A program made the position numbers and the translations under genes. A DNA stretch of 64,000 nt, taken from the IMG/VR virus record IMGVR_UViG_3300044844_000928. One strand, 5' to 3'. The DNA comes from a virus. Of this stretch, positions 7,396-62,942 are shown one piece after another (the first letter of the stretch is position 1; every line of letters starts with the position of its first letter). The notes beneath the pieces are model-generated. The model saw only the letters and a program-made list of their open reading frames with translations, did no database searches and was not told where the DNA came from.

Positions 7396-7455
7396 CGCTT
7401 AACCTCAATTCACGCCCGACTAGGCTATTATACGTGTTTAGCAACATAAAGTAAA
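7396..7455 (-). repeat. Class A element, copy 1: TTTACT-17-TATAAT plus invariant 31-mer
   Basis: Reverse complement of TATAAT-AGCCTAGTCGGGCGTGAATTGAGGTTAAGCG at 7396-7432; -35 box at 7450-7455. Confidence 0.9.
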
Positions 7456-7469
7456 GTTGTATTTCAACA

Positions 7470-7476
7470 CTAAATA
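7470..7476 (+). promoter_or_regulatory. T4-type late promoter (CTAAATA variant)
   Basis: The same motif precedes late genes at 13063, 23260, 25520, 31491, 47929 and 48495, and occurs on the minus strand at 35136, 50085, 52184 and 61877. Confidence 0.7.
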
Positions 7477-7534
7477 TATTATAAATTGTTGAAAAATAAT
7501 AACGGTAACACCTCCAACTTTAAAGGAATTAATA

Positions 7535-9271
7535 ATGTCAACGCTTACCCTCAGAACGGCGAAAGGGTCTCCACTAACAAACGCAGAGGTGGATGCCAAT
7601 TTTACCAATTTACTTGTTGCTTTAGGTGGAACAAACGCAACACCTTATACTTTGCCGACTCCAACCGGTACTGGTTCTCCTGTATTAAATAACAACCCAA
7701 CTTTTTCTGGTAATGTTTTGATTGGTTCTGGTGCAACAACCACTAGATTCCCTAATACAATTTCAATTGTCAGTAACATTACAACAAATCAACATAATGA
7801 ACCTCACAGAATTGGTTTGCTTGCTGAGGGTGTTGGTTCGACTACAACATCAACTGCTACTGGTTCTAATGGTGCTAATACAATTTCTCTTAGCGCGGTA
7901 AATGCAGGCGTTATAGCAGGGCAAGGTGTTAGTGGTACTGGTATCGCAACAAATGCAACTGTTACTGGTATCAGCGGAACGACAATAACATTATCAGCTA
8001 ATAATACCGGTGCTGTTTCTGGGACGGTTACATTTGCCAATTATGGTATTGGTCTTTATGGTTCTGGTTATACAAACGGCGGCGCAAGATCTGGCGGTGT
8101 AGTTGGCGAAGGTCACGTTTCTGCTAGTTTAGATGCTGGTGCTGCTATCGGTGTTCGCGGTTACGCTAACGATGCTCACTCAGGCGGCATGAATATTGGT
8201 CTGTATGGTGATGCAACTGGTGGTGCATCAAACTACTCATTGTATTTGAATAGGGGTGACATTTATTCTGCAGGTGTTCAAAATTGGACTCTGAATGGTA
8301 ACTTGACTTTAACGGGTGCTTATACGGTAACGATTCCAACTTTAAGTTTGGGAAATGCTTTACCTATTGCAAGTGGTGGTACAGGGTCAACAAGTGCCTC
8401 AGCTGCTTTAACTGCATTAGGTGCGTATGCTGCAACTAATCCATCAGGTTACACGACAAATGTCGGCACTGTTACTTCAGTTGCTATAAGTGTTCCAAGT
8501 TTTTTAAGCGCTGGGTCTGCTATTACAACAAGCGGTACTATTGCAATATCGTTATCTGGAACAGCATTACCAGTTGCTAATGGCGGTACAGGGTCAACAA
8601 GTGCCTCAGCAGCATTGACTGCATTGGGTGCTTACGCTTCAACAAATCCATCTGGATATACATCAAACACTGGCACAGTAACTAGCGTTGGTGGTACATC
8701 TCCAATCAGTTCTAGTGGTGGAACAGCTCCTACTATTAGTATATCTCAATCGTCATCGTCTGCAAATGGTTATTTGAGTTCAACTGATTGGAATGCCTTT
8801 AGCGGTAAACAAGCTCCTATTGGAACAATATCTGGATTAGCAAAAGGAAATGGTGCTAATGCCTTAACAGCTGCAACTGCCGGCACAGATTATGTTGCTC
8901 CAGGAACTGCTACAACTTTTACAAAACCACAAACTCCTTCTACTTCAGCAGAAACTGCACCATCTACTAATGCTATTACATGGGATTTGACTACTAATCA
9001 GATTTTCAGAATCAATCTGAATGCTAATATTACTACATTCAATTTGACTGGAACATTAAGTAGTTTGGTTGGTAATCAATATGAAGCAATTGTACGGTAT
9101 AACGGTGGGAGTACAATATCATGGAATGCTAATATGAAATGGACAGCAGCTACTGCTCCTACATTAACAGGAACAAGTGGCAAGATTGATGTATTTACTT
9201 TTGTCGTAGCAAGTACAGACGGAACCAATTATTATTTGGTTAATACTGGCATTAAATTGAACGTGGGTTAA
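7535..9271 (+). CDS. Tail fibre protein
   Basis: LTLRTAKGSPLTNAEVDANF N-terminus, G/T/S-rich, internal LP.A.GGTGST repeats. Confidence 0.7.
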   Translation: MSTLTLRTAKGSPLTNAEVDANFTNLLVALGGTNATPYTLPTPTGTGSPVLNNNPTFSGNVLIGSGATTTRFPNTISIVSNITTNQHNEPHRIGLLAEGVGSTTTSTATGSNGANTISLSAVNAGVIAGQGVSGTGIATNATVTGISGTTITLSANNTGAVSGTVTFANYGIGLYGSGYTNGGARSGGVVGEGHVSASLDAGAAIGVRGYANDAHSGGMNIGLYGDATGGASNYSLYLNRGDIYSAGVQNWTLNGNLTLTGAYTVTIPTLSLGNALPIASGGTGSTSASAALTALGAYAATNPSGYTTNVGTVTSVAISVPSFLSAGSAITTSGTIAISLSGTALPVANGGTGSTSASAALTALGAYASTNPSGYTSNTGTVTSVGGTSPISSSGGTAPTISISQSSSSANGYLSSTDWNAFSGKQAPIGTISGLAKGNGANALTAATAGTDYVAPGTATTFTKPQTPSTSAETAPSTNAITWDLTTNQIFRINLNANITTFNLTGTLSSLVGNQYEAIVRYNGGSTISWNANMKWTAATAPTLTGTSGKIDVFTFVVASTDGTNYYLVNTGIKLNVG

Positions 9272-9274
9272 ATT

Positions 9275-12200
9275 ATGTTTACATTAGCAGCAAATAGATC
9301 GGATGAGGAAGGACAACTATACTCAGATGATGTCTTTAGTACATATTTGTACACTGGCAACGGTTCGACACAGACAATCAATAATGGGATTTCATTAGCA
9401 AGTACAACAGGTTTCAGTTCACAAGTCGTATCAACTACAGGTTCTGCTAACATTTCATGTTCTGCAATATATGGATCAGATACCTATCTTGGTGGATATG
9501 TAACAGAAAGCACATACGGTCGTCCTTTTATTGTTAAAGTATCAGGAGGATCTGTAGTCTGGAGTAAAACTATACGAGAAGTAGATTTTGGTCCACATGA
9601 CTTTGTTGGAACAACTTCTATTAAAGTAGACTCTACAGGTGTGTATGTTTGTGGTGGAACTGTATCATCTTCTACGTGGTATACATTTGTATGTAAATTT
9701 GATCTTTCCGGCACCTTGCTGTGGCAAACGTATATAAAAACTAACAATGCAAATTATCCTGCTATACGTTCAAAACTAACAATTGATGAATCTAATCAAG
9801 TATATGTCGCATCAACTGCCGGCGATGCAGAGGGGAGCGGGTATGTTCAAATTACAAAATTAACATCTAGTGGTGTGCAGTCTTGGAGTAAAAAATTAGA
9901 TAGATATACTACTATGGATGTTAATATTGCTTATGATTCATTAACAAGTTCAATAATAGTCAGTACTACATCTTCAGATGGAGTAACTAATGCTACCATT
10001 ATAATAAAAATAGCAAGTTCTGACGGTACATTAGCATGGTCAAAATTGATTTATTATACATTGCAGAATTTTGATCCAGGAACTACTAGAGTTAAAAATA
10101 TTTTGATTGATTCCAGTTCTAATATTATTCTTCAAATATTAGCAACTAGTATGAATTCCAACAATTCACAAGCTAGTCATATAATTAAATTAAATTCAAG
10201 TGGTGCTACAGTTTTTGGTAGAGCTGGTTATAATTCTTTACGGTCAGCATCATATAAGTATTATACCTCATGTTTAGACTCATCTGATAATATATACGTT
10301 TCATCGTATAATTATACTGAAAATGGACTAAATTACATATTTAAGTTGAATTCAAGCGGTACTCTAATATGGTCAAGAACACTGGATCATACTGGTAGAG
10401 ATGCAGTCATAGGTATGGTAATAAGTGGTAATAATCTCATAATAACCTGCTATGATGAAGTAAAAAACACTACAGAAATTATTACATTAGATAAAGATAA
10501 TCCACGAGATTCTGCAACTACATCTGTAGGAACTATTGGACTAACTACTGGCAACTGGGTCGATTCAACTGCATATGGTGCTATAGCTAATTATGTTACT
10601 GATGGGTCAACTACTTATGGTGCTGCAAGTGCAATAGTTGTCGGAACTGCAAATCTTACTATTAATAATCCAGTAGGTACTCTGTCATCAACGGCAGCAA
10701 CAAATTATTCGGCTATTAACAGTTCTGGTGGAATGGTTTGGTTGAAAGGTAGGTCTGTAGGGTCAAATAATACTATATTTGACACTGCTAGAGGTACGAT
10801 GAAATATTTGCTTACCAATTCAGTAACATCTTCTCAAAATAATGCGCCTTACGGTATAGATTCATTTAATTCTAATGGATTTGGATGGACAAATGACCCG
10901 ACAAATGACTACAACATGTCGGGTGCTACCTACGTTTCATGGACATTCCGCAAAGCACCAAAGTTTTTTGATGTTGTCACTTGGACAGGGAATGGAACAG
11001 ATGATGGAAGTAAGCTAATACAACATTCTTTGGGTTCTGTGCCGGGAATGATTGTTGCAAAGAAAACTACTTCAACCGGAGATTGGTGTGTAAAGCATAG
11101 ATCAAATGGAACAAATAATGGAATTTTATTAAACAGCACCGCCGCAGAAGCTGGCTATGGTTTTGCAAACAACATAAACGGTCTAGGAGCTGCGACGTCT
11201 ACTCAGTTTCCTGTTCGGGCTAATCTTAACGATGCCGGAGCAAACTACGTTGCTTATCTATTCGCCCACGACACGTCATCAACTGGGATTATTCAGTGTG
11301 GGAGTTATACTGGAAGTGCATCAACAGTTTCTATAAATTTAGGATGGGAACCGCAATATGTGCTAATTAAACCGTCTACCACTGCATCTGGTTGGGTCAT
11401 AGTAGATTCAATGCGAGGAACACCAGTTGGCGGTCAAAATGCTAGATTATATGCAGACGCATCGTATAGTGAAGGCACAGGTATTAATGGTCCAGTATCA
11501 CCTACTGCAACAGGTTTTACAGTGCCTAGTACCGATATAGGATGGAATAATAACGGGCAAACCTACATCTACATGGCAATCCGTCGCCCAAACAAGCCGC
11601 CTACAACGGGGACGCAGGTTTATAATGCAATTACAAGAACTGGGACTGGTGCTGCGGCTACGGTTACTGGGGTTGGATTTGCGCCAGATTTAGTGCAAAT
11701 TAGTCAAAGACCATTAGGTGCTGGTAAAAATTGGGTTTGGGTCACTAGACTTTGTGGTAATGCCGTAATGCTATCATCTGATAATTCAGGTGCCGAATTT
11801 ACAAATAGTGTTGTTATACAGTCAGATTCACTATCAACAACTATGGATGGGTTTAGGATACAAACTGCAAACCCTGTTAACTCTGCGAGTTACACATACA
11901 TTAATTACAGTCTAAAACGCGCACCCGGATTCTTTGATGAGGTTTGTTATACGGGTAATGGGGTTTTAGGACAAACATACAATCACAATTTAACAGTTTC
12001 TCCAGAACTAATAATAATTAAAGCAAGAAATTCAGCACGTAACTGGGCTGTATATCCAAATACGCTTTCTAGCGGGTTATATCTTAATCTTACAGGAAGT
12101 TTTAGCGATTATGGTTCAAGATTTACTTCTATTTCTTCTACTACGTTTGGTGTACAAAATGATGAATCTACTAATTTTAGTGGATATACTTACGTCGCTT

Positions 12201-21985: not shown

Positions 21986-22291
21986 ATGTACAATTTTGTT
22001 GAAGGAGATACAGCATCAATACTTGAAGTGAAATGTATAGATGCGTTTACTTCATTGCCAATTAATATGACAGGTTCTACGGCAAAACTCAAATGGGTAA
22101 ATAAAGCCAAAGTAACACTTTTAAAAAATATGACTATTACTGATGCAACCAACGGGGTTGCTCAGTACAATTTTGGAGTAGGTGAATTAGAAGCGCCTAC
22201 TATGTCGTTTGATGTTGTGATAACAGACTCAAACAATAAAACTTTGACATGTAGAGAAATTGTACAGGTTAGTGTCAGAAAACGCTTATAG
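21986..22291 (+). CDS. BppU-like baseplate or fibre adaptor domain protein
   Basis: EGDT..INMTGST..ITDATNG..Y.F pattern. Confidence 0.5.
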   Translation: MYNFVEGDTASILEVKCIDAFTSLPINMTGSTAKLKWVNKAKVTLLKNMTITDATNGVAQYNFGVGELEAPTMSFDVVITDSNNKTLTCREIVQVSVRKRL

Positions 22292-24696: not shown

Positions 24697-25409
24697 TGAC
24701 ACCACATTACGCCGGTATAATCAAAAAGACTATTACAGTTTTCGGTAGCTTGTTTTCTCAATTTCAAATTGAAAGGCTAAATACTGATGGTACAGTCGGA
24801 CAAACTATTAACATACCTATAGCATATTCTAGCAAACAGAAATGGCTTACTAGAATTGAACAAGACCCAAATCTCACGAATCATACGTTAACTACGATGC
24901 CTAGATTTGGGTTTGAAATAACTAATTATTCGTACGATTCAAGTAGAAAGGTTAATTCGATGCAAAAGATAGCATCTAGTGCTACGCCTACTGAAGCGAA
25001 TACACAGTTTTCACCTGTTCCATATAATATTGATATTAACCTTTATCTTCAGACTAAAAATGTTGAAGACGGGTTAATGGTGATGGAACAAATACTGCCA
25101 ATGTTTACTCCGCATTATACAGTTACGATTGATGCTGTTCCAGATATGAATATCATCAATGATGTGCCTTTAGTTTTAAACGGGGTGTCAGTAGAAGATG
25201 ATTATGAATCAGATTTTAGAACAAGACGATCTATAATTCACACATTTTCTTTTACGCTTAAAGTTAATTTATTTGGTGAAATAACAAGATCTAAATTGAT
25301 TAGACATGTAACGGCTAATCTGCCTGATGTAAATGGAAACTATCAAACGGCGGCTACAGTTCCAGGAACATTAACTCAAGACCAATGGACATTTAACTTT
25401 GGGGTGTAA
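24696..25409 (+). CDS. 15: Tail sheath stabiliser/terminator gp15
   Basis: FGSLF..IPIAY..KW..MPRFGFE..PVPYNI..EQILP.F.P. Confidence 0.92.
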   Translation: MTPHYAGIIKKTITVFGSLFSQFQIERLNTDGTVGQTINIPIAYSSKQKWLTRIEQDPNLTNHTLTTMPRFGFEITNYSYDSSRKVNSMQKIASSATPTEANTQFSPVPYNIDINLYLQTKNVEDGLMVMEQILPMFTPHYTVTIDAVPDMNIINDVPLVLNGVSVEDDYESDFRTRRSIIHTFSFTLKVNLFGEITRSKLIRHVTANLPDVNGNYQTAATVPGTLTQDQWTFNFGV

Positions 25410-25422: not shown

Positions 25423-25482
25423 CGCTTAACCTCAATTCACGCCCGACTAGGCTATTATAGGCTCATTGGTCTAAAAAGTAAA
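25423..25482 (-). repeat. Class A element, copy 2
   Basis: Identical 37-mer at 25423-25459; -35 box at 25477-25482; 17-nt spacer. Confidence 0.9.
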
Positions 25483-25570
25483 GTTTTATTTTTGAACACA
25501 AGTTAAAAATCATTTTTCACTAAATATTTTTATAACTATAATTTAACAACCAATTCTCTTAGGAGTACAT

Positions 25571-28150
25571 ATGTCATACCAAGTCTCGCCAGGAATTGAA
25601 GTCAATGAAATTGACAACACTTCAACAGTTTCTGGTCTTAATTCAACAGCCGCTGCGCATGTAGGGTTGTTTAACTGGGGACCAGTTCTTCAACCGACTA
25701 CTGTTACTTCAGAACTAAATTTGAAAGAATTATTCTGGAAACCTACAGATTCAAACGCGCAAAGTTGGTTTACAGCTGCTAATTTTTTAGCTTACTCTAA
25801 TAACTTAATTAACATTCGTGCTGATGCTGATGCTCAATACACCTCTGTTAAAATTCCTTCTGTAGATTTAGCCGGTACTGTGCATTTTGTTGCTGGTTCT
25901 ACTGCTGTATTTGGTTTTAATGGTACACAGTTTTCTACATTAACAGTTGGCCAAAATTTAATTGATGCTGACTATAACGTTATCGGTACAGTTGCTTCTA
26001 TTACAAATAACACACAGTTAACTTTAAGTGCTGCTCCAACTACGTCTTCTATTGATTCATTAACAGGTATTGTTACTGCATCTACAGGTTCTGCTGCTGT
26101 AGTTGGTACAGGCACATTGTTCACAACTGAACTTGCGGTTGGGGATATCGTAACTAAATTATCTGCCAGTTCAGCTGGATATGATATTTTAGGAACAATT
26201 CTTTCTATCGCAGATGATACTCATTTAACATTAGCGGCTAACTCTGCTGTTGTTGCTTCAGGTGTTGCGTTCGGTATCGCTTCTACATTAACAGGTACAC
26301 TTACTTCAACAACTGGTTCAACATCTGTTGTTGGTGTTGGTACTAATTTTACAGAAGTATTATCAATTGGTGATATATTAACCACACCAGCTCGTGTAGT
26401 TATCGGAACGATTGCGTCTATCACAGATAATACCAATTTGGCTTTAACTGCTAATGGTTCTATCGCAGTTTCTGGAAGCAAATTTGCCACTGAAGTAAAA
26501 ACCTTTAAAGATAATCGTATCAAAATCAATAACTATGACGATTATGAATCAAACTATATTAACGGCGGTTTGAATATCGGTGAATTTGCTGCTCGTTATC
26601 CAGGCAAATTAGGTAACTCTATTCAAGTCGTTGTTGTTGACTCTAACACTTTCCAATATCAATCTCGTGTTGGAACTGTTACTTCTACAACATCTTCTAA
26701 AACGCTTACCGGTGTTGGTACTTCTTTCTTATCAACTTTAAAAGTTGGTGAAGTTATCCATAAAGCTGATTCAACCCATACAGTTATTGGCACAGTTGCT
26801 TCTATTGAAACTAATACATCTTTGACTTTAGTTAATTTCGGCAAAGTTGCTGTTTCAGGTGTTGCCTTTGAAGTTTCAATTGCAAGTTCTTATACTGGTC
26901 AATTTACTTCAGCTCCTGCTACTTCTTCTTATGCGAAAAGCAAAGGCGTATTAAATGCTAAAGACGAAATCCATATCTTAGTTATCGACAAAGATGGTGC
27001 GTTTACTGGTGTGAAAGGTGCTACCCTTGAAAAGTATTCATTCTTATCTAAAGCATCTGATGCTAAATATGATGATGGTTCTTCAAGCTACTATAAAACT
27101 GTTATCAACAGCGCGTCTGCTTATGTTTACTGGTTGGATATTCCAAGCGCCGTTTCTGGTACAGGTATCGCATGGAACACAGAATTAGCTGATGTGATTG
27201 TTAAAACTCAATCATTCAAATCTTTAACATATCCATTATATGTTGAATTAAGCGGCGGTACTGATGCTGCATCGATTACAGATGGTGAAAAAATTCTTGC
27301 TTTAGATTTGCTTGCAAATAAAGACTTATATAATTTTGCCTTTATCGCTTTAGGAAAAGCTTCTTCAACTGTTGCTAGTCATGCTGTTGCTTTAGCTGAA
27401 ACAAGAAAAGACGTTATCGTATTTATTTCTCCAGAAGATACTATTACCGGTGAATTCATCAAAGGTACTGGTTCTGATGCTATTGATAAATTGCTTGAGT
27501 ATCGTTCAGAATTACCATCGTCTTCATATGGCTTCTTAGATACAGGCGCTAAATATCAATATGACGCTTATAATGATAAACGTCGTTGGATTGCTTTAAA
27601 CGGTGACATTGCTGGTCTTGCTGCTATTACATCTGAACCATGGGTTTCAAATGGCGGCTTTAACAACGGTCAAATTAAAAACGTTATCAAATTAGCAGTT
27701 AATCCTACAAAAGCTGATCGCGATAATTTGTATCCTCAAAATGTTAACCCAGTTGTTACCTTTAAAGGTCAAGGAACTGTATTGTTCGGCGATAAAACTT
27801 TGTTAGACCGCCCAAGCGCGTTTGACCGTATCGGTGTTCGTAGATTGTTTATTTTGTTAGAAAAATCTATCGAAAAATCTGCTCAATATCAATTGTTCGC
27901 TATTAATGATGACACAACAAGAGCACAGTTTAAAAACTTGATCGAACCTTTCTTAAGAGATATTAAAGGTAGACGCGGCATTAACGACTTTAAAGTTGTT
28001 TGTGATGCAACTAACAACACCGCTAATGTTGTTGAAACAAATAATTTCGTTGCCGACATTTTCGTCAAACCTAATTATAGCATCAACTATATCACTCTTA
28101 ACTTCGTTGCAACTCGTCAATCAGTTGCGTTTACTACAGCAGGAGCATAA
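25571..28150 (+). CDS. 18: Tail sheath protein gp18 with an internal repeat insertion
   Basis: SPGIEVNEID, F.WGP, SAFDRIGVRRLF, INYITLNFVATR. Confidence 0.95.
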   Translation: MSYQVSPGIEVNEIDNTSTVSGLNSTAAAHVGLFNWGPVLQPTTVTSELNLKELFWKPTDSNAQSWFTAANFLAYSNNLINIRADADAQYTSVKIPSVDLAGTVHFVAGSTAVFGFNGTQFSTLTVGQNLIDADYNVIGTVASITNNTQLTLSAAPTTSSIDSLTGIVTASTGSAAVVGTGTLFTTELAVGDIVTKLSASSAGYDILGTILSIADDTHLTLAANSAVVASGVAFGIASTLTGTLTSTTGSTSVVGVGTNFTEVLSIGDILTTPARVVIGTIASITDNTNLALTANGSIAVSGSKFATEVKTFKDNRIKINNYDDYESNYINGGLNIGEFAARYPGKLGNSIQVVVVDSNTFQYQSRVGTVTSTTSSKTLTGVGTSFLSTLKVGEVIHKADSTHTVIGTVASIETNTSLTLVNFGKVAVSGVAFEVSIASSYTGQFTSAPATSSYAKSKGVLNAKDEIHILVIDKDGAFTGVKGATLEKYSFLSKASDAKYDDGSSSYYKTVINSASAYVYWLDIPSAVSGTGIAWNTELADVIVKTQSFKSLTYPLYVELSGGTDAASITDGEKILALDLLANKDLYNFAFIALGKASSTVASHAVALAETRKDVIVFISPEDTITGEFIKGTGSDAIDKLLEYRSELPSSSYGFLDTGAKYQYDAYNDKRRWIALNGDIAGLAAITSEPWVSNGGFNNGQIKNVIKLAVNPTKADRDNLYPQNVNPVVTFKGQGTVLFGDKTLLDRPSAFDRIGVRRLFILLEKSIEKSAQYQLFAINDDTTRAQFKNLIEPFLRDIKGRRGINDFKVVCDATNNTANVVETNNFVADIFVKPNYSINYITLNFVATRQSVAFTTAGA

Positions 28151-33801: not shown

Positions 33802-34239
33802 TTATACGCCGGCTTGAAACTTCTTAAATTCGATAGCGTTTCTAATACTCCAAGTTCTATCTTTTATTGAATTTAATATAGACTCAAGCATGTATATCAT
33901 AGATACCATATATTCAATTTTGGTTTCGATTGTAGTTAAGTCAGTATCACCCTTCAATATCTCGTCCATCTCAGATTTTAGCGGCTTTCCTAACTGGCAC
34001 TGCGCCCAGTTCAATTCTGTTAATTCTGTTCTAGATAATTCCCCACGGTAATACCTAAACTTCAATGTTCTTAAATTAGCGTATTCCTGTCTCAGCTTTA
34101 TCAGTTTCAGTTTAGACTCAACCAATATCCCAATATATTTTGAATGAAGTTTTGAAGATTTAATGGATTCTATGTCTAACTGTACTCCATCTATTTCCGA
34201 ATCAATTTCCCACTGTTCTTGTAGTTCACTTATATTCAT
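33802..34239 (-). CDS. uvsY: Recombination mediator UvsY
   Basis: W..DS.ID..ES.K...LHSKY..YY.G..IRNAIEFKKFQAG. Confidence 0.9.
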   Translation of the reverse strand: MNISELQEQWEIDSEIDGVQLDIESIKSSKLHSKYIGILVESKLKLIKLRQEYANLRTLKFRYYRGELSRTELTELNWAQCQLGKPLKSEMDEILKGDTDLTTIETKIEYMVSMIYMLESILNSIKDRTWSIRNAIEFKKFQAGV

Positions 34240-34315
34240 ATGCCCTCACGGTTGTATTCTATAGTATGTATTATAAATAATTTCGTTATAAAAGTAAATG
34301 TCATTAAAATGATTA

Positions 34316-35056
34316 TTACCAACTATATGTCAGATTTTTGCATTTGTCAAAATGCCATCTTTTCATTACAATTTCACCTCCACTTTTACCACAATGAGGA
34401 CATGTAACTTGTTGCTTATGTTTACCTTTGTGAAAAACAGACATTTTGGCTTTTGTTTCTTTTGATCTAGGCTTACGCATTTTGACTTTAGTTTCTTCTG
34501 AGCAAGGTTTTCTAGGTTTACCTTTATCTGAGCGTGGTTTATGTAGTTTTCTAGGTTTACTTGATTTTTTATATTGACCACGTTTTTTGCCTTTCATATT
34601 AGCCTTAGCTTCTTCTGAAAGAGGTCCTCGAGGTTTACGCATTTTGGCTTTAGTTTCTTCTGATTTACGCATGTTAGCTTTAGCTTCTTCTGATCTAGGC
34701 TTACGCATATTAATCTTAGCTTCTTCTGAACGTTTTGTGCCAGGAGGGCATCCATCTAATCCATTTTCTGGTTTCAAGTTTGCCCATTCTTTAGAATTAA
34801 CTATGTCGTTATCAGCAGAAAACTGTAAGGCTACTTCGACGATAGAAGTATCATAATACAAATCAGAAACCCAAAGAGTAACGATGTGTTCTTTACCGTG
34901 TTTCTTGATATGGCGAACCCAATATGGACCAGAACCATTATAGGTGTATGGATCTAAATTTGTTGTCTTACCGTAGTATTTCTTTTTGGTTATGGAATGC
35001 TGTTTGATGTAAAGATATGTAGGTGTGATGGGAGTATAAATACTTGTGCTGGTCAT
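34316..35056 (-). CDS. Putative homing endonuclease (GIY-YIG-like, NUMOD3-type repeats, C-terminal zinc finger)
   Basis: YLYIKQH..KYYGKT..Y.GSG..W; SEE.K.KMR repeats; CPHC..RWHFD.C; start at MTSTSIY (35056). Confidence 0.75.
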   Translation of the reverse strand: MTSTSIYTPITPTYLYIKQHSITKKKYYGKTTNLDPYTYNGSGPYWVRHIKKHGKEHIVTLWVSDLYYDTSIVEVALQFSADNDIVNSKEWANLKPENGLDGCPPGTKRSEEAKINMRKPRSEEAKANMRKSEETKAKMRKPRGPLSEEAKANMKGKKRGQYKKSSKPRKLHKPRSDKGKPRKPCSEETKVKMRKPRSKETKAKMSVFHKGKHKQQVTCPHCGKSGGEIVMKRWHFDKCKNLTYSW

Positions 35057-35147
35057 GTTAGTTCTCGTAATTAATGAAAGGATGATTAGTGCTACTGGGG
35101 ACGGCAATCCCGCGAGTAGCTTTTTTTGTACAAAATATTTAGTAAAA
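35034..35147. repeat. Nuclease-associated cassette, copy 1 (convergent late promoters plus structured RNA)
   Basis: GTATAAATACTTGTGCTGGTCATG...ATGATTAGTGC-hairpin-TTTTTTTGTACAAAATATTTAGTAAAA; recurs at 49986 and 52085. Confidence 0.9.
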
Positions 35148-35290: not shown

Positions 35291-35354
35291 CTAGATAAAA
35301 ATTATAGATAAAATAGAAAAGTCTAGCTTTTTATATTTGATGAAAAATAATTTA

Positions 35355-35412
35355 AAATAAAGCTTTACTTTTACAAAAATCATAGTATAATAGATCTTAA
35401 TGAAGTTAAACC
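35355..35412 (+). promoter_or_regulatory. Class B early promoter (AAAATAAAGCTTTACT-16-TATAATAGATCTTAATGAAGTTA)
   Basis: Near-identical copies with -35 boxes at 35364, 37134, 52203, 53490, 55161 and 61896; resembles T4 early promoters. Confidence 0.85.
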
Positions 35413-35427
35413 TTAATGGAGTGTAAT

Positions 35428-36476
35428 ATGAAAAACAAATTATTGATTGCGGCGTTAGCCTTAACTATCCCTTCTGTTGGGGTTGCACATGAAAATGATT
35501 GGATAGCACCTGCTATAATCGGCGGTGTTATTCTTGGGTCAGTATATAGTCAACCTGTGGAAAGAGATGTTGTTATCTTACGTGAAAGGGAATATGGATA
35601 TGGATATAGAGAGTATGAAAGAAGAGAAATGTTAAGAGAACAAATTAGAGAAAACCAATTAAGACAGCGTATGCTTGAGCGTAGAGAATATGAACTATAC
35701 AGATGGTAAAATAAAAGGTGGGTACAATTATGATGATTTAACAAAGGAAAAGGTTTTAAACAGTCCTTTGTTAAGAAAAAGTCATGTTCATTTACCTAAG
35801 AAAAAACGAACCCGTGAGATTGAAGACGGGATTAAAGCTTACTTGCGCGGTGATTATGAATAAGATAAAAAACATCAGTGTGAGTGATATAAACGATATT
35901 TCTAGTTTGTTACAGAAATTCCCTGAAGTACAGCATATTGATTTATTACATACAGATACAACCGGCATCGGATATACTTTGCATGTAAAATTTGAATATC
36001 AGGTTAACGGTATTATGACAGAATTGACCATTCCGGTCGTTGATGAATCTAATTGGTAAATTTGAGGATTATATTATGATAGAAATTGGCTATAACCTTG
36101 CGTCAACGCTTAAAGCAGCAATGGGTTGCGGAATTGTAGTTTACGCTATTTACACAGTGTCAAATTTGTTGAACGGGTATCTACCATTAAATACTAGTGG
36201 AAGTAAAAATGTCACGAGCAAAATTACTCCCAAAACTAAAGAGGTTACTCAACCGTGAGTAACATTATTTCAACCCTACAATGGGATTTTTCAATTATGA
36301 AAAAAAGCGAGTATTATACAATTTACACCAACGGGTTAGCCTTTATTGGTGTTCTGTTGATGATAACCGGTATTGAACCAATTTTAGGAGCATATATTGC
36401 GCTATTTGGTGTTGGTATGTTTTTTATCCAAGTAGCACAGATAAGCCTTAAAATTCCTCTTTCTATGAAGGGTTAA
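35428..36476 (+). CDS. Cluster of five small early hypothetical ORFs; the first has a signal peptide and the last is a membrane protein
   Basis: ORFs ending at 35709, 35863, 36059, 36258 and 36476, closely packed behind an early promoter. Confidence 0.5.
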
Positions 36477-36994: not shown

Positions 36995-37022
36995 AAAAGC
37001 CGGCTTAATTGTCGGCTTTTTT
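36995..37022 (+). terminator. Terminator family AAGCCGGC-n-GYCGGCTTTT
   Basis: Related hairpins at about 50821, 53352 and 55109. Confidence 0.8.
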
Positions 37023-37038: not shown

Positions 37039-37098
37039 TTTACTTTATATCTTCAAACACGTATAATAGCCTAGTCGGGCGTGAATTGAGGTTAAGCG
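37039..37098 (+). repeat. Class A element, copy 3
   Basis: TTTACT at 37039, TATAAT at 37062, 31-mer at 37068-37098; a class B promoter follows at 37134. Confidence 0.9.
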
Positions 37099-37206
37099 CT
37101 TAAAAATATTTTAGGTTTTATTAAAAATAAAGCTTTACTTTTCCATAAAACAAAGTATAATAGATCTTAATGAAGTTAAACCTATAACGTTATTGGAGTG
37201 TTTAAT

Positions 37207-38125: not shown

Positions 38126-39484
38126 ATGTCGAACGGCACGCTTTATGTTGAAAAACTGAATGAAGCCTTTATTAAGATAACAGCTGATGATTTTGGTATA
38201 GAATCTGAATTGTATGAATACTTCTCATTTTTTGTTCCTGGATATAAATTTATGCCACTTTTCCGTAACAAAATTTGGGATGGAAAAGCACGGTTATACG
38301 ATATTCATAAAAAGCTGTTACAGACCGGTTTAATAGGATATGTTGAAAAATTCGCAGATATTAATGAATACACTATATCATACAAAAATGATGTAAAAGA
38401 ACAAAACAATTATCCACTTGAATTGGTAAACAATTTTTGTTCTGCATTAAAGCCACACGCAAGAAGCAAACCTATTGACTTTAGACATTACCAACTTGAC
38501 GCGGTACATAAGGCGCTTAATCTTAATAGATGTATTCTTGTGTCACCAACGTCATCTGGTAAGTCTTTAATGATTTACAGTTTAATTCGTTGGTATATTA
38601 ACGCCGGTAAAAGATGTTTGATTATCGTTCCATCAACAACCTTAGTTGAGCAAATGTATTCTGATTTTCAAGATTACTCAAGCCATAATGGGTGGAGTGT
38701 AGATGCTAACTGTAACAAAATCTATTCAGGGTTTACTAGAGAATTTAAACATAACTGTGCTATTTCAACATGGCAAAGTTTGTACAAATTAAAGCCTAAA
38801 GACCTTGAAAATATAGATGTTGTTATCGGAGATGAGTGCCATACATACGCGGCTAAATCAGCTTCAACTTTGCTGAATAATATGCCAGATGTAAAATACA
38901 GATTTGGCACAACAGGAACGCTTAATGGTAAAAATATATCAGAACTACAATTAACCGGCTTATTTGGTGAAGTTTATAAGGTAATAACAACAAAAGAGTT
39001 GATGGATAATAAAGAAGTCACTCCATTAAACATTAATTGCCTTATATTAAATCACCCTAAAGAATCTAAAGACTTATGTAAAAAAATAGAATATCAAAAA
39101 GAAATTAAGTTTTTAACGTTAGACAGTAAGCGAAACAAATTTATCTCAAATTTGACATTGTCTTTAGACGGCGTTACTTTGATTCTGTTTAACTATATAT
39201 CACACGGAAAGGCAATATTAGAGCTGTTAAAAGATAAAGGTTCTGACAGAACGATACATTATGTTTCCGGCGAAGTTGATACCGCTGAACGAAATGATAT
39301 TCGTAATTTGCTGAATTCAACTAAGAAGTCTAGAAAGGTTTACTTTGGTGAGGCATATCTAGTGATTGCCGATAATGAAGATGTAGTATTAACCGGCGGC
39401 GCTATTATAAAGGGTAAAGATTTGACATTAGATAATGATATTGATAATTCTTGGATTAAATCTAAGAAACTACATAAGGAGTGA
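38126..39484 (+). CDS. uvsW: UvsW-like SF2 helicase, N-terminal part only (lacks motifs V and VI)
   Basis: FFVPGYKFMP..WDG; SPTSSGKS; DECH; GTTGT; sequence diverges after SGEVDTAERNDIR. Confidence 0.85.
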   Translation: MSNGTLYVEKLNEAFIKITADDFGIESELYEYFSFFVPGYKFMPLFRNKIWDGKARLYDIHKKLLQTGLIGYVEKFADINEYTISYKNDVKEQNNYPLELVNNFCSALKPHARSKPIDFRHYQLDAVHKALNLNRCILVSPTSSGKSLMIYSLIRWYINAGKRCLIIVPSTTLVEQMYSDFQDYSSHNGWSVDANCNKIYSGFTREFKHNCAISTWQSLYKLKPKDLENIDVVIGDECHTYAAKSASTLLNNMPDVKYRFGTTGTLNGKNISELQLTGLFGEVYKVITTKELMDNKEVTPLNINCLILNHPKESKDLCKKIEYQKEIKFLTLDSKRNKFISNLTLSLDGVTLILFNYISHGKAILELLKDKGSDRTIHYVSGEVDTAERNDIRNLLNSTKKSRKVYFGEAYLVIADNEDVVLTGGAIIKGKDLTLDNDIDNSWIKSKKLHKE

Positions 39485-45085: not shown

Positions 45086-45109
45086 ATACCTGTAGTTTGA
45101 GTTAAAGAG

Positions 45110-45727
45110 TTTTGGTAGCCTAGTCGGTTTGGATCGGGGTTACTATCAAAATTGGAAGCACTACCAATTAAAAGTGGCAAATGTATGTTCTGCGGAAAGC
45201 CTTAAAGCACAAAAAAGAACTGACAGTTTGGAAAGACAAACATTATGAAGCATAAGTATTACATTCTAGTCGGGTTTGTGGTCGTACTAGGCAGCACATG
45301 TAACTCCGTAAATACTTATGACTTGATAGTTGATGCGTAGGCTGATACGCACCGATGTGATGTAAGAGGGGAATAAGGCTATACGTTAATCCTTATTAAG
45401 CTGGAGTTCAGCGCCGGTAACTATCAATCTCCTTAGCCTGCTGGGAGAATAATAAGGCAGGAGTGTACCGAACCAGCTTGTGCACAGCGAGTGGACTGGT
45501 GACAGCTTGGAAAGACAAGCACTATGAATGATTGGTATTGTGCCGAGCGTGAAGATGCCCACTAGATAAGCGTGAGACTTGTAAAATCCCGCCAGTATCA
45601 ATGATTGATAGTTATTGCGTAGGCTGATACGCGCGGGAATTGACATCGCTTAATTGAACAGGGGAGCATACTAGGTTGCTCACTGGCAGAACCTTCTGCA
45701 AGCCGGAGATCAGCACCGGCAACTATC
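45110..45727 (+). ncRNA. Cluster of putative structured ncRNAs (two ~280-nt tandem units)
   Basis: No credible ORF, GC-richer than flanks, repeated scaffolds with compensatory changes (see findings). Confidence 0.75.
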
Positions 45728-45736
45728 TAAATTTAA

Positions 45737-46964: not shown

Positions 46965-47119
46965 AATACCTGCGTTGGTTCTTACTTTTCGCTATTTTTG
47001 TAAGATTTAATAGGGGGAGACGTAGGATAAAAACATACTGTTTTAGTATGTTTTTTAAATAGCTAACTTGATTTGAATTTAACAAATTCTATTTTAATAT
47101 CCTTTTTTTGGAGAATAAC

Positions 47120-47878
47120 ATGTCAGCTACAATTGAAACTGTAAAAGCAGAAGCTAAAGAATCTTCACTTTTGAATAAAAAAGCTATGCTATTTGGTGCG
47201 TCATTATATATTGTGTTTTATGGATGGGTTCGTTGGTATGAAGGGGTTTACGGGTGGTCTGCTGGTTTAGACTCGTTTGCTCCAGAGTTTGAAACATACT
47301 GGATGAACTTCTTATACATAGAAATGGTTTTAGAGGTATTAACCGCGTCAATTTTATGGGGTTATATCTGGAAAAGTCGTGATCGTAAAGTGATGTCAAT
47401 CACACCACGTGAAGAATTGCGTCGTCATTTCACACATTGGGTATGGTTGGTAATGTACGGTATCGCAATTTATTATGGAGCATCATATTTTACTGAACAA
47501 GATGGTACATGGCATCAAACAATTGTTAGAGATACCGACTTTACTCCAAGTCATGTTATTGAGTTCTATTTAAGTTATCCGATTTATATTATTACTGGTG
47601 TTGCTTCGTTTTTATATGCTAAAACTCGTTTACCAACCTACCAAAAAGGCTTACCATTACAATATATGGTATCTGTAATTGGTCCATTTATGATTCTTCC
47701 AAACGTAGGTTTGAATGAATGGGGTCACACTTTCTGGTTTATGGAAGAATTGTTTGTTGCTCCTTTGCATTATGGATTTGTATTTTTTGGCTGGGCGGCT
47801 TTAGGCGTATTGGGCGTTGTTAATATCGAAGTAAAAGCAATTGCTAACTTATTGAAAAAAGACTTAGCTGTAGCATAG
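47120..47878 (+). CDS. pmoC: Particulate methane monooxygenase subunit C (auxiliary metabolic gene)
   Basis: GWSAGLDSFAPEFETYW; EQDGTWHQTIVRDTDFTPSH; PNVGLNEWGHTFWFMEELFVAPLHYGFV; ATG at 47120 behind a GGAG RBS. Confidence 0.98.
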   Translation: MSATIETVKAEAKESSLLNKKAMLFGASLYIVFYGWVRWYEGVYGWSAGLDSFAPEFETYWMNFLYIEMVLEVLTASILWGYIWKSRDRKVMSITPREELRRHFTHWVWLVMYGIAIYYGASYFTEQDGTWHQTIVRDTDFTPSHVIEFYLSYPIYIITGVASFLYAKTRLPTYQKGLPLQYMVSVIGPFMILPNVGLNEWGHTFWFMEELFVAPLHYGFVFFGWAALGVLGVVNIEVKAIANLLKKDLAVA

Positions 47879-49393: not shown

Positions 49394-49431
49394 AAAAGGT
49401 TCACAGTTTAATTGCTGTGAACCTTTTTTTT
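49394..49431. terminator. Bidirectional terminator
   Basis: AAAAGGTTCACAG...CTGTGAACCTTTTTT between convergent genes. Confidence 0.8.
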
Positions 49432-50008
49432 ACTTTATTTTGCAGTTGTCAAAATGCCATCGTTTCATTACACTCACTCCACCAGTTTTACCGCAATGTG
49501 GACATGTTATTTGTTTTTTCGGTTTACGCATTTTGGCTTTAGTTTCTTCTGATTGAGGTTTACCCTTATTAGCAGCAGATATTTTGGCTTTATGCTCATC
49601 TGACTTAGGTTTGCGCATTTTGACTTTAGATTCTTCTGTGTGCATTTTACCCTTTTTAGCTTCAGACATTTTGGATTTAGTTTCGTCTGTATGTTTCACA
49701 CTTCCGCCATCCAATCCATTTTCTGGCATCATATTTGCCCATTTTTTAGAATTGACAATATCGTTTTCTGCAGAAAACTTTAAGGCGAATTCAGCGATAG
49801 ATGTGTCTGTGTAAGGTTCCGAAACCCAAAGAGTAACGATGTGTTCTTTACCGTGGACTTTGATGTGGTTACACCAGTATTTGCCTGAGCCATTGTATGT
49901 GTATGGGTCTTTTATTGTTTTCCCAAAATACTTTAAGCCGGTTATGGAATGTTGTTTGATATAGAGATAGGTGGGATCTATTGCGGTATAAATACTTGTG
50001 CTGGTCAT
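49430..50008 (-). CDS. Putative homing endonuclease, paralogue of 34316-35056
   Basis: PTYLYIKQHSITGLKYFGKT, NUMOD3-type repeats, CPHC zinc finger. Confidence 0.75.
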   Translation of the reverse strand: MTSTSIYTAIDPTYLYIKQHSITGLKYFGKTIKDPYTYNGSGKYWCNHIKVHGKEHIVTLWVSEPYTDTSIAEFALKFSAENDIVNSKKWANMMPENGLDGGSVKHTDETKSKMSEAKKGKMHTEESKVKMRKPKSDEHKAKISAANKGKPQSEETKAKMRKPKKQITCPHCGKTGGVSVMKRWHFDNCKIK

Positions 50009-50868: not shown

Positions 50869-52107
50869 TTACTGGCAATTGATTGGTATCCCATATTCTT
50901 TTACGAAATTTTTATCTAGGTAAATATTTATGTTTTTGTCAATTCTATAAAATTTAATCCTATTTCCATTTGGTGTAAATAATTTTACGTGTATAGTATC
51001 ATCGTAATCATTTGGATGTATATCTAATAATGATTTTAGCTGTGTGTGATAAACTATAATGCATTTATTTTTGGTTGGATCATAATCAAAATATCCAGGA
51101 GGATTTGGGCACATTTTATTTACAAATTTAAACTTCCCATTAATATCATATTTTCTAATTCCAATATTTCTTGATACAAACGGTTGTATGTGGTGTGCAT
51201 TAATATCTAATGGGTCTATCATTTCAAATTGATTAGATAAAATATTATAAAACAATGTAGAATAATTTTTTTCTTTATAGCGGCGCAGACGTTTTCTTTT
51301 TTCTGGTGTTAATACTACAGCTGGATATTTTTTTGATTTACGAGTTGCTGATATTTTAGCACCTATACGTTTCTTGTGCTCATTTGATCTATTTGCCCAT
51401 ATTTTTGTAACAATGTCACTTAAAATTTGTTTTGATTTTGTTATTGTCCAACCATCAAATAAAAGACGTTCGTATTCATCTGAATACTTAAACACTTCTA
51501 TTTCATTTTGCTCATAGTATAATTTTATTTTTGTGGTTTTTGAATGATAGCATTTCAGACTTGTTGATGTTAATTCTTTAGATGTTTCTGTTCTTGGTTT
51601 ATATGTTCTGCCTGTTGACATTGATACAAATTCTTTAGATACAACTCTAGGATCTGTTACTGAGCAATAAAATATAGCTCCATTGTTGTCAATATACGCG
51701 GCTTTACCTTTAGTGGATGTAGAACAATTTTGTGAAAATTCTATTTTAAAATTTTCATAAATTTTTGAATGTACATTATATGTGCGTTTTCTTGAATCTT
51801 TTGGCGATTGTTTGTTGCACATTGCCCAAAAGGCAAAAATTTGTGATCCTTTGTATGTTTTTGCTAATAAGTAATGAGCAATATAATGTTGTCGGTGTGT
51901 TAAATTTACAGCGTTCCATTTATTTGATTTGAATGATGCATATTCAGGAAAAAGATCATTTGCCTTTGGACAAATGTGATGTTTTTGTGTCTTATATTTT
52001 ATTGGAGGTTGATTGACATAATTTGATATAAATTTTATATATCTATTAAGATAATGTTGATTGTGTGGTTTGCTTGATAATATGGTATAAATACTTGTGC
52101 TGGTCAT
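50869..52107 (-). CDS. Putative HNH homing endonuclease (Mob-like)
   Basis: HHICPK...N.V.LT.RQHYIAH.LL; start at MTSTSIY (52107). Confidence 0.78.
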   Translation of the reverse strand: MTSTSIYTILSSKPHNQHYLNRYIKFISNYVNQPPIKYKTQKHHICPKANDLFPEYASFKSNKWNAVNLTHRQHYIAHYLLAKTYKGSQIFAFWAMCNKQSPKDSRKRTYNVHSKIYENFKIEFSQNCSTSTKGKAAYIDNNGAIFYCSVTDPRVVSKEFVSMSTGRTYKPRTETSKELTSTSLKCYHSKTTKIKLYYEQNEIEVFKYSDEYERLLFDGWTITKSKQILSDIVTKIWANRSNEHKKRIGAKISATRKSKKYPAVVLTPEKRKRLRRYKEKNYSTLFYNILSNQFEMIDPLDINAHHIQPFVSRNIGIRKYDINGKFKFVNKMCPNPPGYFDYDPTKNKCIIVYHTQLKSLLDIHPNDYDDTIHVKLFTPNGNRIKFYRIDKNINIYLDKNFVKEYGIPINCQ

Positions 52108-52195
52108 GGTAGATCCTTTTATCGATAGAATGATTAGTGCCACTGGGATGTAGGAGTCCGCGAGTGGCTTTTTTTGTACAAAATATTTAGTAAAA
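52085..52195. repeat. Nuclease-associated cassette, copy 3
   Basis: Same scaffold, here attached to an HNH gene. Confidence 0.9.
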
Positions 52196-53347: not shown

Positions 53348-53394
53348 TAATAAAGCCGGCTTAATTGTCGGCTTTTTCACATATAAAATAAAAC

Positions 53395-53454
53395 TTTACT
53401 TTATAGACCAATAAGACTATAATAGCCTAGTCGGGCGTGAATTGAGGTTAAGCG
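53395..53454 (+). repeat. Class A element, copy 4
   Basis: TTTACT at 53395, TATAAT at 53418, 31-mer to 53454; lies between a terminator and the class B promoter at 53490. Confidence 0.9.
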
Positions 53455-53561
53455 GGGTTAATTAATTTAAAAATAATTAAAAATAAAGCTTTACTTTTCT
53501 ATAAAACAGAGTATAATAGATATTAATGAAGTTATCCCTTGAATTAATTGGAGTGTTTGAT

Positions 53562-61572: not shown

Positions 61573-61574
61573 TT

Positions 61575-61967: not shown

Positions 61968-62410
61968 ATGACAAACTATGACGAAAACCGTATTAAATCT
62001 GCAATTGTTAAACTTGAAGACGCGTTAGCAATTATTGAGCAAGTTAATGATTCTAAAGGAGTTTCCGAAGAATACGAAATACTTTTAGATTTAGTTCGCG
62101 CGTTAACTTGTAATCAAATTAAAAGAATAAATTTAAAAAAGTGCTTGCTTTAAAGCAAGCACTAAGGTATAATGAATCATACTTAATAAAGGAGAGAGAA
62201 ATGACTAAATTAAATGCTGAAGTAATTATTAAACAATTAGAGGACTACAATATGAAACAATGGCTTAAAGAATTTGTTCACAATGTTATCGTTCACCCAT
62301 TAATGATGTTCATGCCGGCAAAATATGCTAACTTGTTACATGATCGTAATGCTACATGGACATTTGAATTAGGACGTTACGACGAGCTGCAGCTCGAAGG
62401 CAAGAAGTAA
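61968..62410 (+). CDS. Early hypothetical ORFs (61968-62153 and 62201-62410)
   Basis: GGAG RBSs behind promoters. Confidence 0.5.
62140..62180 (+). promoter_or_regulatory. Class C promoter TTGCTT-17-TATAAT overlapped by a 24-bp palindrome
   Basis: AGTGCTTGCTTT/AAAGCAAGCACT at 62140-62163; TAAGGTATAATGAATCATA is shared with the promoter at 62444. Confidence 0.7.
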
Positions 62411-62443
62411 TTACCAATTTAACAATTATTTCTAATAAAGTGA

Positions 62444-62472
62444 TTGACATCTAATAACAGTTAAGGTATAAT
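62444..62472 (+). promoter_or_regulatory. Perfect sigma70 consensus promoter
   Basis: TTGACA-17-TATAAT. Confidence 0.85.
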
Positions 62473-62492
62473 GAATCATAATTAAATTAAAC

Positions 62493-62643
62493 GAAACGCT
62501 TTCAGGACGGCTTTGCTGGTGACCGATTCCAGCTTAACGATAGTTTGGCGAGTAGGGTGGTTCCTATGGTCTGGACTAGTCGGGATACCATACTGCTGAC
62601 CACAGTTACTGGCGAAAACCCAGTGCCGTCCTGAAAGCGTTTC
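62493..62643 (+). ncRNA. Putative ~150-nt structured RNA
   Basis: Perfect 19-bp closing stem and internal hairpins, GC-rich, just downstream of a promoter. Confidence 0.75.
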
Positions 62644-62664
62644 CTAAAATAGTGGAGAATAAAA

Positions 62665-62874
62665 ATGTTAGAGATAAAATTAACCGGCGCTGTTCTTACT
62701 GTTATTGAAAGACTTCATTTTTTTACTGAAACTCGCACCAGATTTTGGTACTACAATATTGATACATGGTGTAAAAATCGTAACGGTAAAGAAAACGAAC
62801 TAATGGATTTTGAATGCGACCAAGGCACTATTGACTGGGTAAGAAAATACTACTTCCCAAAAGTTGGGCTTTAA
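62665..62874 (+). CDS. Hypothetical protein
   Basis: GGAG RBS. Confidence 0.55.
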   Translation: MLEIKLTGAVLTVIERLHFFTETRTRFWYYNIDTWCKNRNGKENELMDFECDQGTIDWVRKYYFPKVGL

Positions 62875-62882
62875 AATAAAAC

Positions 62883-62942
62883 TTTACTTTATGTTTCTAA
62901 ACACGTATAATAGCCTAGTCGGGCGTGAATTGAGGTTAAGCG
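62883..62942 (+). repeat. Class A element, copy 5
   Basis: TTTACT at 62883, TATAAT at 62906, 31-mer to 62942. Confidence 0.9.

Follow-up and report, generated by a model that had tools for sequence, protein, structure and literature searches.

A dispersed sigma70 promoter with a fixed G-rich leader, a candidate replication origin in T4-like phages of methanotrophs and cyanobacteria

The 64,000-nt stretch of DNA analysed here (the window) belongs to a T4-like pmoC-phage. Its host group was assigned to Methylococcaceae because its pmoC (47108–47878, + strand) encodes a protein 85–92% identical to PmoC of that family. Context genes include those for the uvsY recombination mediator (33802–34239, −) and a UvsW-type helicase (38126–39484, +); three tRNAs are the only Rfam matches. 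A first-pass annotation had described a 37-nt element, TATAAT plus a 31-mer, at five sites, and all five copies are indeed identical and lie at the positions and on the strands it reported; no sixth copy occurs in the window, even with up to 10 mismatches tolerated. TTTACT lies exactly 17 nt 5′ of the −10 box in every copy while the spacers vary, the 31-mer has a G+C count of 17 (12 G, 5 C) in a window of 35.5% GC, AT-rich DNA comes after the G-cluster leader, and copies 1–3 end in TTAAGCGCTTAA, all as described before. The first six nucleotides of the 31-mer are probably the promoter discriminator, so that the RNA would begin GUCGGGCGUGAA; all +1 positions given here are inferred from the spacing to the −10 box.

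Copy 1 (7396–7455, −; −35 box 7450–7455, −10 box 7427–7432, discriminator 7421–7426, +1 at 7420, leader 7396–7420) points antisense toward the end of a 67-aa virion gene. The late transcript that it opposes would end, judging by sequence, at a terminator-like GC hairpin with a T-run (7357–7383, +), and a late-promoter-like box, ACTAAATA (7469–7476, +), stands back-to-back with the copy. Copy 2 (25423–25482, −; −35 box 25477–25482, −10 box 25454–25459, +1 at 25447) occupies the gap between gp15 (ending at 25409) and gp18 (starting at 25571), where it reads antisense into gp15, back-to-back with the late-promoter-like ACTAAATA box of gp18 (25519–25526, +). Both copies thus lie antisense between late genes, as had been claimed; the boxes resemble the T4 late box. 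Copy 3 (37039–37098, +; −35 box 37039–37044, −10 box 37062–37067, +1 at 37074) follows an intrinsic-terminator-like hairpin (36999–37022, +) that closes a gp3-like tail gene, and has uvsW 1.0 kb downstream and uvsY 2.8 kb away. Copy 4 (53395–53454, +; −35 box 53395–53400, −10 box 53418–53423, +1 at 53430) likewise follows a terminator-like hairpin (53355–53377, +). Each of these two runs into a second, ordinary early promoter whose −35 box lies 72 nt beyond the first base of the earlier −10 box: that behind copy 3 (37134–37161, +) has a 16-nt spacer, belongs to a PeSL-like family and stands before its gene's own ribosome site, and that behind copy 4 lies at 53490–53517 (+). Only copy 5 (62883–62942, +; −35 box 62883–62888, −10 box 62906–62911, +1 at 62918) leads directly into an ORF (62967–63305), assigned to a PHROG of unknown function.

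The element's first 11 nt did not occur in any of 100 dinucleotide shuffles, which excludes chance. Pairwise similarity reaches upstream to include the A-tract and −35 box (70–79 nt at 92–96% in some pairs), but the downstream flanks and neighbouring genes differ among copies, ruling out segmental duplication. The two readings that the first-pass annotation had set against its own, ordinary 5′ UTRs and recent duplication including the flanks, do not describe what is found: most copies do not behave as 5′ UTRs, and the downstream flanks are not duplicated. The element is a dispersed strong promoter, mostly without a gene, that probably starts a short G-rich RNA.

The invariance of the whole 31-mer holds within the window's genome and not among relatives, where just +1 to +12 are essentially fixed (32 distinct copies) and the tail drifts, yet remains G-rich and C-poor throughout. 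Conservation is limited to about −6 to +12, and identity within a genome probably reflects gene conversion together with selection on the first 10–12 nt. The consensus −35/N17/−10 is present in all five copies and all homologues, and the wider class can be written as a sigma70 promoter with an A-N-C-N-N-T/A discriminator and a G-T-Y-(N)-GGG start. IMG/VR holds more than 120 similar matches, and genomes of the window's clade, judged from relatives, probably carry at least eight copies each. Three distant complete genomes have three to five: G012 (173.9 kb; gp23 66% identical) has five, at 0.9, 28.5, 51.9, 98.6 and 126.8 kb, G017 four and G018 three. Among cyanophages, Syn9 has two (~52776, +; ~123698, −), and S-PM2 two (~84439, −; ~162772, +), one in the uvsW–gp55 gap, the other behind a baseplate gene. 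In P-SSM2 there is at least one (~124.8 kb, −); one antisense copy occupies the uvsW–gp55 gap in each of the three. Promoters of phiM12 and HTVC008M at the same position start T-G-T and are not G-rich, no copy could be recognised in P-TIM40 or Melnitz, and the G-cluster start is not enriched above control in Acj61, ZZ1 or T4. A repeat scan of the Acinetobacter phage Acj61 likewise turned up no gene-less family with five copies. A blastn search of cultured phages with the element gave chance matches only (to its AT-rich upstream part or short words), metagenome scans gave nothing with a strict pattern and mostly chance matches plus two known types with a loose one, the element had no Rfam match at gathering score, and we found no published description of it.

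The hairpins 5′ of copies 3 and 4, and the small ORFs behind several relatives' sites, recall the PeSLs of RB49 and phi1, mobile cassettes for gene shuffling which share with the element a repeated intergenic sigma70 promoter and an AT-rich upstream tract (PMC2839356). PeSLs, however, have a Shine-Dalgarno sequence and a start codon at their end and are concentrated in the hyperplastic regions that flank ORFans (PMC2839356), whereas the element can do without a stem-loop, a ribosome site and an ORF, four of the five copies having no such ORF start. Its copies are widely spaced and often antisense in conserved core regions, including two within a conserved virion block, and relatives keep it at the same sites, gp15/gp18 and further core virion junctions among them; what is truly PeSL-like in the window is a different repeat family, D1. 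A PeSL-type origin for the element is therefore largely refuted and very improbable.

The first-pass annotation had also suggested a decoy RNA resembling type I-C CRISPR repeats. Positions +4 to +16 in the window are one base off the 3′ part of some such repeats. Like the solitary repeat units of RNA anti-CRISPRs (Racrs), the element is a short non-coding phage unit with its own promoter (PMC10651486), but it is multi-copy, its hosts are unrelated, and the leader has neither the repeat stem-loop, which was essential in the type I-F Racr (PMC10651486), nor the repeat end: GAAAC occurs in no variant, and homologues such as GTCGGGTTTGAT and GTCAGGGTTGAA bear no resemblance. A search with the 13-mer in 40 Methylococcaceae genomes found no array-like cluster, although arrays are often missing from MAGs; matches were scattered, and those inspected were ordinary sequence, which also led us to drop a REP-like host repeat. 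Marine Prochlorococcus and Synechococcus, whose phages also carry the element family, are largely not known to have CRISPR. Repeat mimicry finds no support, and we regard it as extremely improbable.

A multi-copy trans-acting RNA that is not a CRISPR mimic, its 5′ end titrating a host RNA-binding protein, nuclease or defence sensor, would account for very strong promoters and a fixed 5′ end independent of orientation and neighbours. We consider it decidedly improbable, since nothing, be it a terminator, a processing signal or a shared fold, defines a 3′ end, the motif is conserved in phages with very different hosts, and dosage would need no wide, even dispersal. Folds of the variants are weak and dissimilar (MFE −1.6 kcal/mol for the 25-nt leader), none being common to them, and a conserved RNA hairpin was accordingly dropped. 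Two other resemblances were also rejected: the window copy fits the elemental pause consensus by eye and the variants do not, and a likeness to the anticodon stem of initiator tRNA or to the T-arm of tRNAs has no partner strand and is lost in variants. Separately, the element shows an exact 11-mer pairing with an ncRNA cluster at 45117 that is improbable by chance; as a functional pairing it was set aside, there being no promoter in register and a mutation in one relative.

Among 78 non-redundant cyanophage-type copies, 59 are antisense, and the stop of the opposing gene lies a median of 21 nt past +1, which leaves no room for an RNA gene; 54 are both antisense and divergent from a neighbouring promoter. 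Such placement would suit transcriptional interference, an antisense timing switch in which early polymerase works against, or stands back-to-back with, late operons and the gp55 promoter and damps premature late expression, the fixed leader tuning promoter escape or pausing. Window copies 1 and 2 stand behind late boxes, and the uvsW–gp55 gap is used in Syn9, S-PM2, P-SSM2, HTVC008M, phiM12 and G018. We nevertheless think a timing switch unlikely, because the same leader stands in sense, unopposed, before a second promoter (copies 3 and 4 of the window and two in G012), the opposed genes vary between copies, and even genome-wide spacing would not be predicted. Antisense transcription in a T4-like cyanophage has a parallel in the S-PM2 CfrI RNA (~225 nt, opposite psbA and an endonuclease gene; reviewed in PMC2984593), although the S-PM2 element copies lie elsewhere.

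Copies are spaced more evenly than random in the window (P ~0.011), in G012 (P ~0.011) and in G017 (P ~0.002, for a pattern picked after the data were viewed), and not significantly so in G018 (P 0.18). One copy lies within ~3 kb of uvsY/uvsW in the window, G012, G018, Syn9, S-PM2 and P-SSM2. Leaders contain 9.0 G per 25 nt, against 5.0 in 213 further promoters from those genomes (P=5e-12), an excess partly built in by picking them with a G-containing pattern; at positions outside the search pattern, cyanophage-type copies are purine/G-rich from +11 to +16 and AT-rich from +27 onward. The 100 bp behind the leader melt more easily than at other promoters (−121 versus −131 kcal/mol, P=4e-6), a comparison confounded by coding content because ordinary promoters lead straight into coding DNA, and in this respect copy 2 does not exceed the average. 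By nearest-neighbour energies an RNA:DNA hybrid gains little: the window ranks at the 13th percentile, the overall difference reaches P=0.045, and G012 shows no advantage.

Each copy joins a consensus sigma70 promoter and its A-tract to a fixed leader with a G cluster, and AT-rich DNA comes next; the copies are several per genome, widely spaced, usually serve no gene and, when antisense, sit in tiny late-operon gaps. This combination resembles the R-loop origins of T4. T4 has five active origins, of which oriF (ori-uvsY, the uvsY promoter) and oriG (ori-34) are R-loop origins whose R-loops UvsW unwinds (PMC3016281). Like oriF and oriG, the element pairs a promoter with AT-rich downstream DNA several times per genome; the annotated oriG primer RNA runs opposite to late gene 34 (NC_000866), a precedent for antisense copies within the late region; and, as at oriF, one site lies near uvsY/uvsW, in a phage group with UvsW and RNase H homologues. 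The RNase H homologue is absent from the window itself and present in distant genomes and in close relatives (L019, L027 and L040), a few kb from the copy-5 orthologues. T4 origins have no local motif in common and form R-loops independently of specific sequence (PMC3016281), and the transcripts from oriF and oriG, rich in A, do not contain the motif, so that a fixed G-cluster leader is no T4 feature. The element is an early sigma70 promoter with its −35 box at 17 nt, in contrast to the MotA middle promoters of T4, and having no MotA box it is not filed as a member of the oriF/oriG type, only as a candidate that would work like one. The uvsY promoter of the window is not the element, and in contrast to oriE (early promoter, iterons, repEA/repEB) the element is multi-copy, with no 12-nt iterons or direct-repeat array at any of the five copies.

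R-loop priming, one of three options in the first-pass annotation, fits the comparative evidence best, and we infer, at about even chances, that each copy is an origin of the T4 type, where transcription primes replication, and that such origins are dispersed through the genome. Once infection begins, host RNA polymerase would fire immediately from the G that lies seven bases beyond the −10 box, and the G-rich RNA with its 5′ GGG would stay on the template as an R-loop across easily melted DNA; G clusters favour R-loop initiation (PMC3258121). RNase H would trim the RNA, leaving a 3′ end from which the leading strand is primed; helicase and primase would load on the displaced strand, and UvsW would clear R-loops late. 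Several spaced copies could let a circularly permuted genome begin replicating near any end. Orientation would be set by local constraints: antisense copies in late operons would avoid early expression of late genes and make lagging-strand synthesis co-directional with late transcription, the polarity at which gp45 clamps activate that transcription. Against this reading, some copies lead into ORFs, three copies lie inside 600 bp in the relative L038, whose clade probably has at least eight, P-TIM40 and Melnitz show no recognisable copy, and the turning points of cumulative GC skew do not coincide with copies.

Restriction of conservation to about −6 to +12 suits a specific contact better than a sequence-independent R-loop. 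The discriminator and first 10–12 nt, about one RNA:DNA hybrid length, might be read by RNA polymerase itself, as a stalled initial complex, or by a phage protein; the site would then serve genome organisation, protection or recombination and not the priming of replication. Copies homogenised within a genome (both G004 copies have one tail variant) and the HNH gene directly behind the element in L001 and L005, at a site empty in L013, are consistent with such a cis-acting binding or trapping site. As a full account it seems quite unlikely: the analysis yielded no protein as a candidate for binding it, variants share no dyad symmetry, and the G-rich-then-AT-rich profile and the uvsY/uvsW link are left unexplained. 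It merges with the origin reading if the bound complex primes DNA, and the protein-binding or recombination site proposed in the first-pass annotation may be part of the mechanism in that the first 10–12 nt are held fixed.

Among T4-like phages other than T4, Syn9 has a single theta origin by prediction only (PMC2984593); what governs the formation of R-loops at T4 origins is counted among the open questions (PMC3016281). It is possible, at somewhat less than even chances, that MotA-less T4-like phages (including lake methanotroph phages and the abundant marine cyanophages) share a sequence-defined class of origin promoter, in which the discriminator and first ~ten transcribed bases would make host RNA polymerase lay a replication primer. 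Origins could then be read straight from genome sequence across these phages. Exact coordinates in cultured Syn9, S-PM2 and P-SSM2 make the origin question directly testable with existing phage-host pairs. Should the origin reading fail, a class of gene-less promoters with a fixed 10–12-nt leader would still have to be explained, and this class spans phages of cyanobacteria and proteobacteria.

The element, a sigma70-type promoter joined to an invariant 31-mer, is real. Five identical dispersed 31-mers behind a fixed promoter had been claimed in the first-pass annotation; all five were recovered without mismatch, at 7396-7426 (-), 25423-25453 (-), 37068-37098 (+), 53424-53454 (+) and 62912-62942 (+) (copies 1-5), each preceded by TTTACT-N17-TATAAT, and the window held no sixth copy at ≤10 mismatches. 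Even the 11 nt that open the 31-mer did not occur in 100 shuffles. Similarity between copies reaches upstream across the promoter (70-79 nt at 92-96%), and all five have an A-tract upstream of the promoter; their downstream flanks and neighbouring genes are unlike. Given normal sigma70 spacing, we take bases 1-6 of the 31-mer to be the discriminator and the next G to be the RNA 5′ end (+1), where the transcribed leader starts. At the window's 13 other promoter-like sites, GGG was never found within the first eight transcribed bases.

The surroundings of the copies also bore out what had been described. Copies 1 and 2 do point antisense, as was said: each occupies a short intergenic gap among late genes and stands back-to-back with a box resembling a late promoter. 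Copies 3 and 4, said to run into a second promoter, each have a terminator hairpin upstream and an ordinary promoter downstream, followed by the ribosome site of a gene, and copy 5 runs directly into the expected ORF (112 aa, no assigned function). The ribosome site and ORF that belong to PeSLs (mobile promoter/stem-loop cassettes) are absent at the element, which makes a PeSL a very improbable identity for it. A PeSL-like family of early promoter-leader-ribosome-site units has six copies in the window (35342-35439, 37112, 52181, 53468, 55139, 61874), with an unusual 16-nt spacer, and many more in the relative G003.

The window belongs to a T4-like phage whose major capsid protein is ~62% identical to the cyanophage and Melnitz counterparts; T4-type genes identified in it are gp15, gp18, a gp3-like tail gene, uvsY and a UvsW-type helicase. 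pmoC is present, as in the pmoC-phages described earlier (PMC7674155), and is 85-92% identical to Methylococcaceae proteins. uvsY (33802-34298, -) runs inverted with respect to gene order in cyanophages, and the element is missing from its own sigma70-type promoter.

IMG/VR contigs of relatives yielded 40 element copies, 32 of them distinct. Across these, a single change interrupts the otherwise fixed positions +1 to +12; the discriminator varies at its third base, and +13 to +25 are variable but keep G and almost never gain C. A fixed leader of about one hybrid's length would be in keeping with a binding or trap site, the leader making a specific contact with a phage protein or with RNA polymerase; we consider this unlikely. 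No common fold was found among the leader variants, each of which folds weakly, and a decoy RNA seems quite improbable. The suggested CRISPR-repeat mimic did not hold up: the stem-loop of RNA anti-CRISPRs (Racrs) is absent from the element, and such a function is scarcely credible.

Three tail variants occur at the gp15-gp18 site, depending on the phage, and in one relative, G004, the tail there matches that at the same genome's other site, which points to concerted evolution of the copies within a genome. In relatives G002/G005, mapped onto the window, further copies lie ~19 kb and ~50 kb to the left of copy 1, and relatives have another site behind the terminase N-fragment; judging from these extra sites, the window phage probably has at least eight copies, 9-31 kb apart. 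In two relatives (L001/L005) an antisense HNH-like gene lies directly behind the element, and L013 represents the empty site. One contig copy (L011:1733-1790) is short of 11 bp, the -10 box among them, through a deletion between two AAT repeats; either the copy is dead or the assembly is at fault.

Relaxing the search pattern revealed a wider family in T4-like phages, a graded series with a common discriminator shape (A-N-C-N-N-T/A) followed by a start that reads GTCGGGCGTGAA in the window, GTCGGGTTTGAT in G007 and G018, GTTGGGTTT in G012, GTAGGGGTTGAT in G017 and GTCAGGGTTGAA in cyanophages; homology along the series means shared motif, architecture and position, with no alignment statistic behind it. 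G012, a distant complete genome (173,880 bp; gp23 66% identical to that of the window), shows 65 promoter-like sites, of which exactly five are copies of the element. Three of them lie antisense where consecutive sense genes leave a short gap; the other two point in the sense direction, one immediately before a second promoter. Four copies, spaced 36-47 kb, were found in G017 and three in G018. Syn9 has two (~52776, +, and ~123698, -), S-PM2 also two, and P-SSM2 one or more (220 of 252 kb scanned in detail); P-TIM40 and Melnitz, searched likewise, gave none. A repeat scan of the Acinetobacter phage Acj61 turned up no five-copy family of this kind. The cyanophage-type pattern has at least 120 matches in IMG/VR. 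Among the matches listed, 59 of 78 distinct copies are antisense, the opposing stop codon lies a median of 21 nt past +1, and the pattern-free bases are purine/G-rich at +11 to +16 and AT-rich from +27.

One copy recurs between gp55 and the gene that follows uvsW: it points antisense there in Syn9, S-PM2 and P-SSM2 and is present also in G018. In Syn9 (NC_008296, ~123718-123733) the -35 boxes of the element and the gp55 promoter form one 16-bp palindrome, so that the two promoters overlap back-to-back. That the element serves to interfere beside late and gp55 promoters is a reading we regard as rather unlikely. In HTVC008M (80233, -) and phiM12 (KF381361) the uvsW-gp55 gap likewise contains an antisense sigma70 promoter, whose leader opens with T-G-T and is not rich in G; in phiM12 it has a near-identical twin, the two lying 134 kb apart at 22169 (+) and 156251 (-). 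Leaders of this type may be a variant belonging to alphaproteobacterial phages.

Independence of orientation and neighbours, the sufficiency of a promoter and 10-20 bases, and the even spread together point to a role in cis on DNA. We give about an even chance that the copies are transcription-primed (R-loop) replication origins. T4 uses five origins, two of which, oriF and oriG, combine a promoter with an unwinding element where the transcript forms an R-loop; RNase H very likely trims this R-loop, and UvsW removes it late (PMC3016281). G clusters favour R-loop initiation (PMC3258121), and RNase H homologues lie near the copy-5 orthologues of relatives. In these phages the oriF/oriG-type job would fall to an early sigma70 promoter and its G-cluster leader; cyanomyoviruses lack motA (PMC2984593). 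Antisense placement in late operons, matched in T4 by the oriG primer RNA running opposite to gene 34, would avoid early expression of late genes and, more speculatively, might make lagging-strand synthesis, from which most gp45 loading sites arise, run in line with late transcription (for the rules on polarity, see PMC2988020). Against the T4 parallel, however, T4 origins share no common motif and their transcripts are A-rich. The element resembles oriF and oriG in its proposed mode of working but lacks their MotA promoter and is therefore not classed with them, and the iterons of oriE are absent. A T4 early promoter (NC_000866, 7152-7214, -) has its -10 box and next six bases (GGTCCC) in common with the oriG promoter.

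Minimum-gap tests of copy spacing gave P ~0.011 for the window, ~0.011 for G012, ~0.18 for G018 and ~0.002 for G017, the last for a pattern picked after viewing the data. Against wide spacing, three copies crowd within 600 bp in one relative (L038:3858-4496), one adjoining an HNH-like gene. Leaders average 9.0 G per 25 nt versus 5.0 in 213 other promoters (P=5e-12), though the pattern used for selection accounts for part of the difference. The following 100 bp melt more easily (-121 versus -131 kcal/mol, P=4e-6), a comparison confounded by coding content, and the RNA:DNA hybrid advantage of leaders is weak (nearest-neighbour energies, P=0.045). The literature searched, mainly papers outside subscription journals, contained no description of the element; since cultured cyanophages carry it, direct tests are possible there.

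Two tandem sets of structured non-coding units lie inside the tRNA cluster (45086-45730). In each set there is a unit with TGACAG-N3-GGAAAGAC at its end, together with a long closed stem and a tRNA-like unit delimited by GATAGTT/AACTATC. They had no Rfam match even at E=5 and may be related to the small stable RNAs of T4. Within them, 45117-45127 matches the opening 11 nt of the 31-mer exactly, with no promoter in register; the match appeared in none of 100 shuffles, and one relative has it mismatched. Three antisense ORFs (34316-35107, 49430-50008 and 50869-52143, all -) look by eye like HNH/NUMOD3-type endonucleases and have ~100-200 bp of upstream or 5′ sequence in common (repeats D3-D6). 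At 62444-62643, a perfect consensus promoter precedes a GC-rich segment with a long inverted repeat (I24) closing it, a candidate structured RNA.
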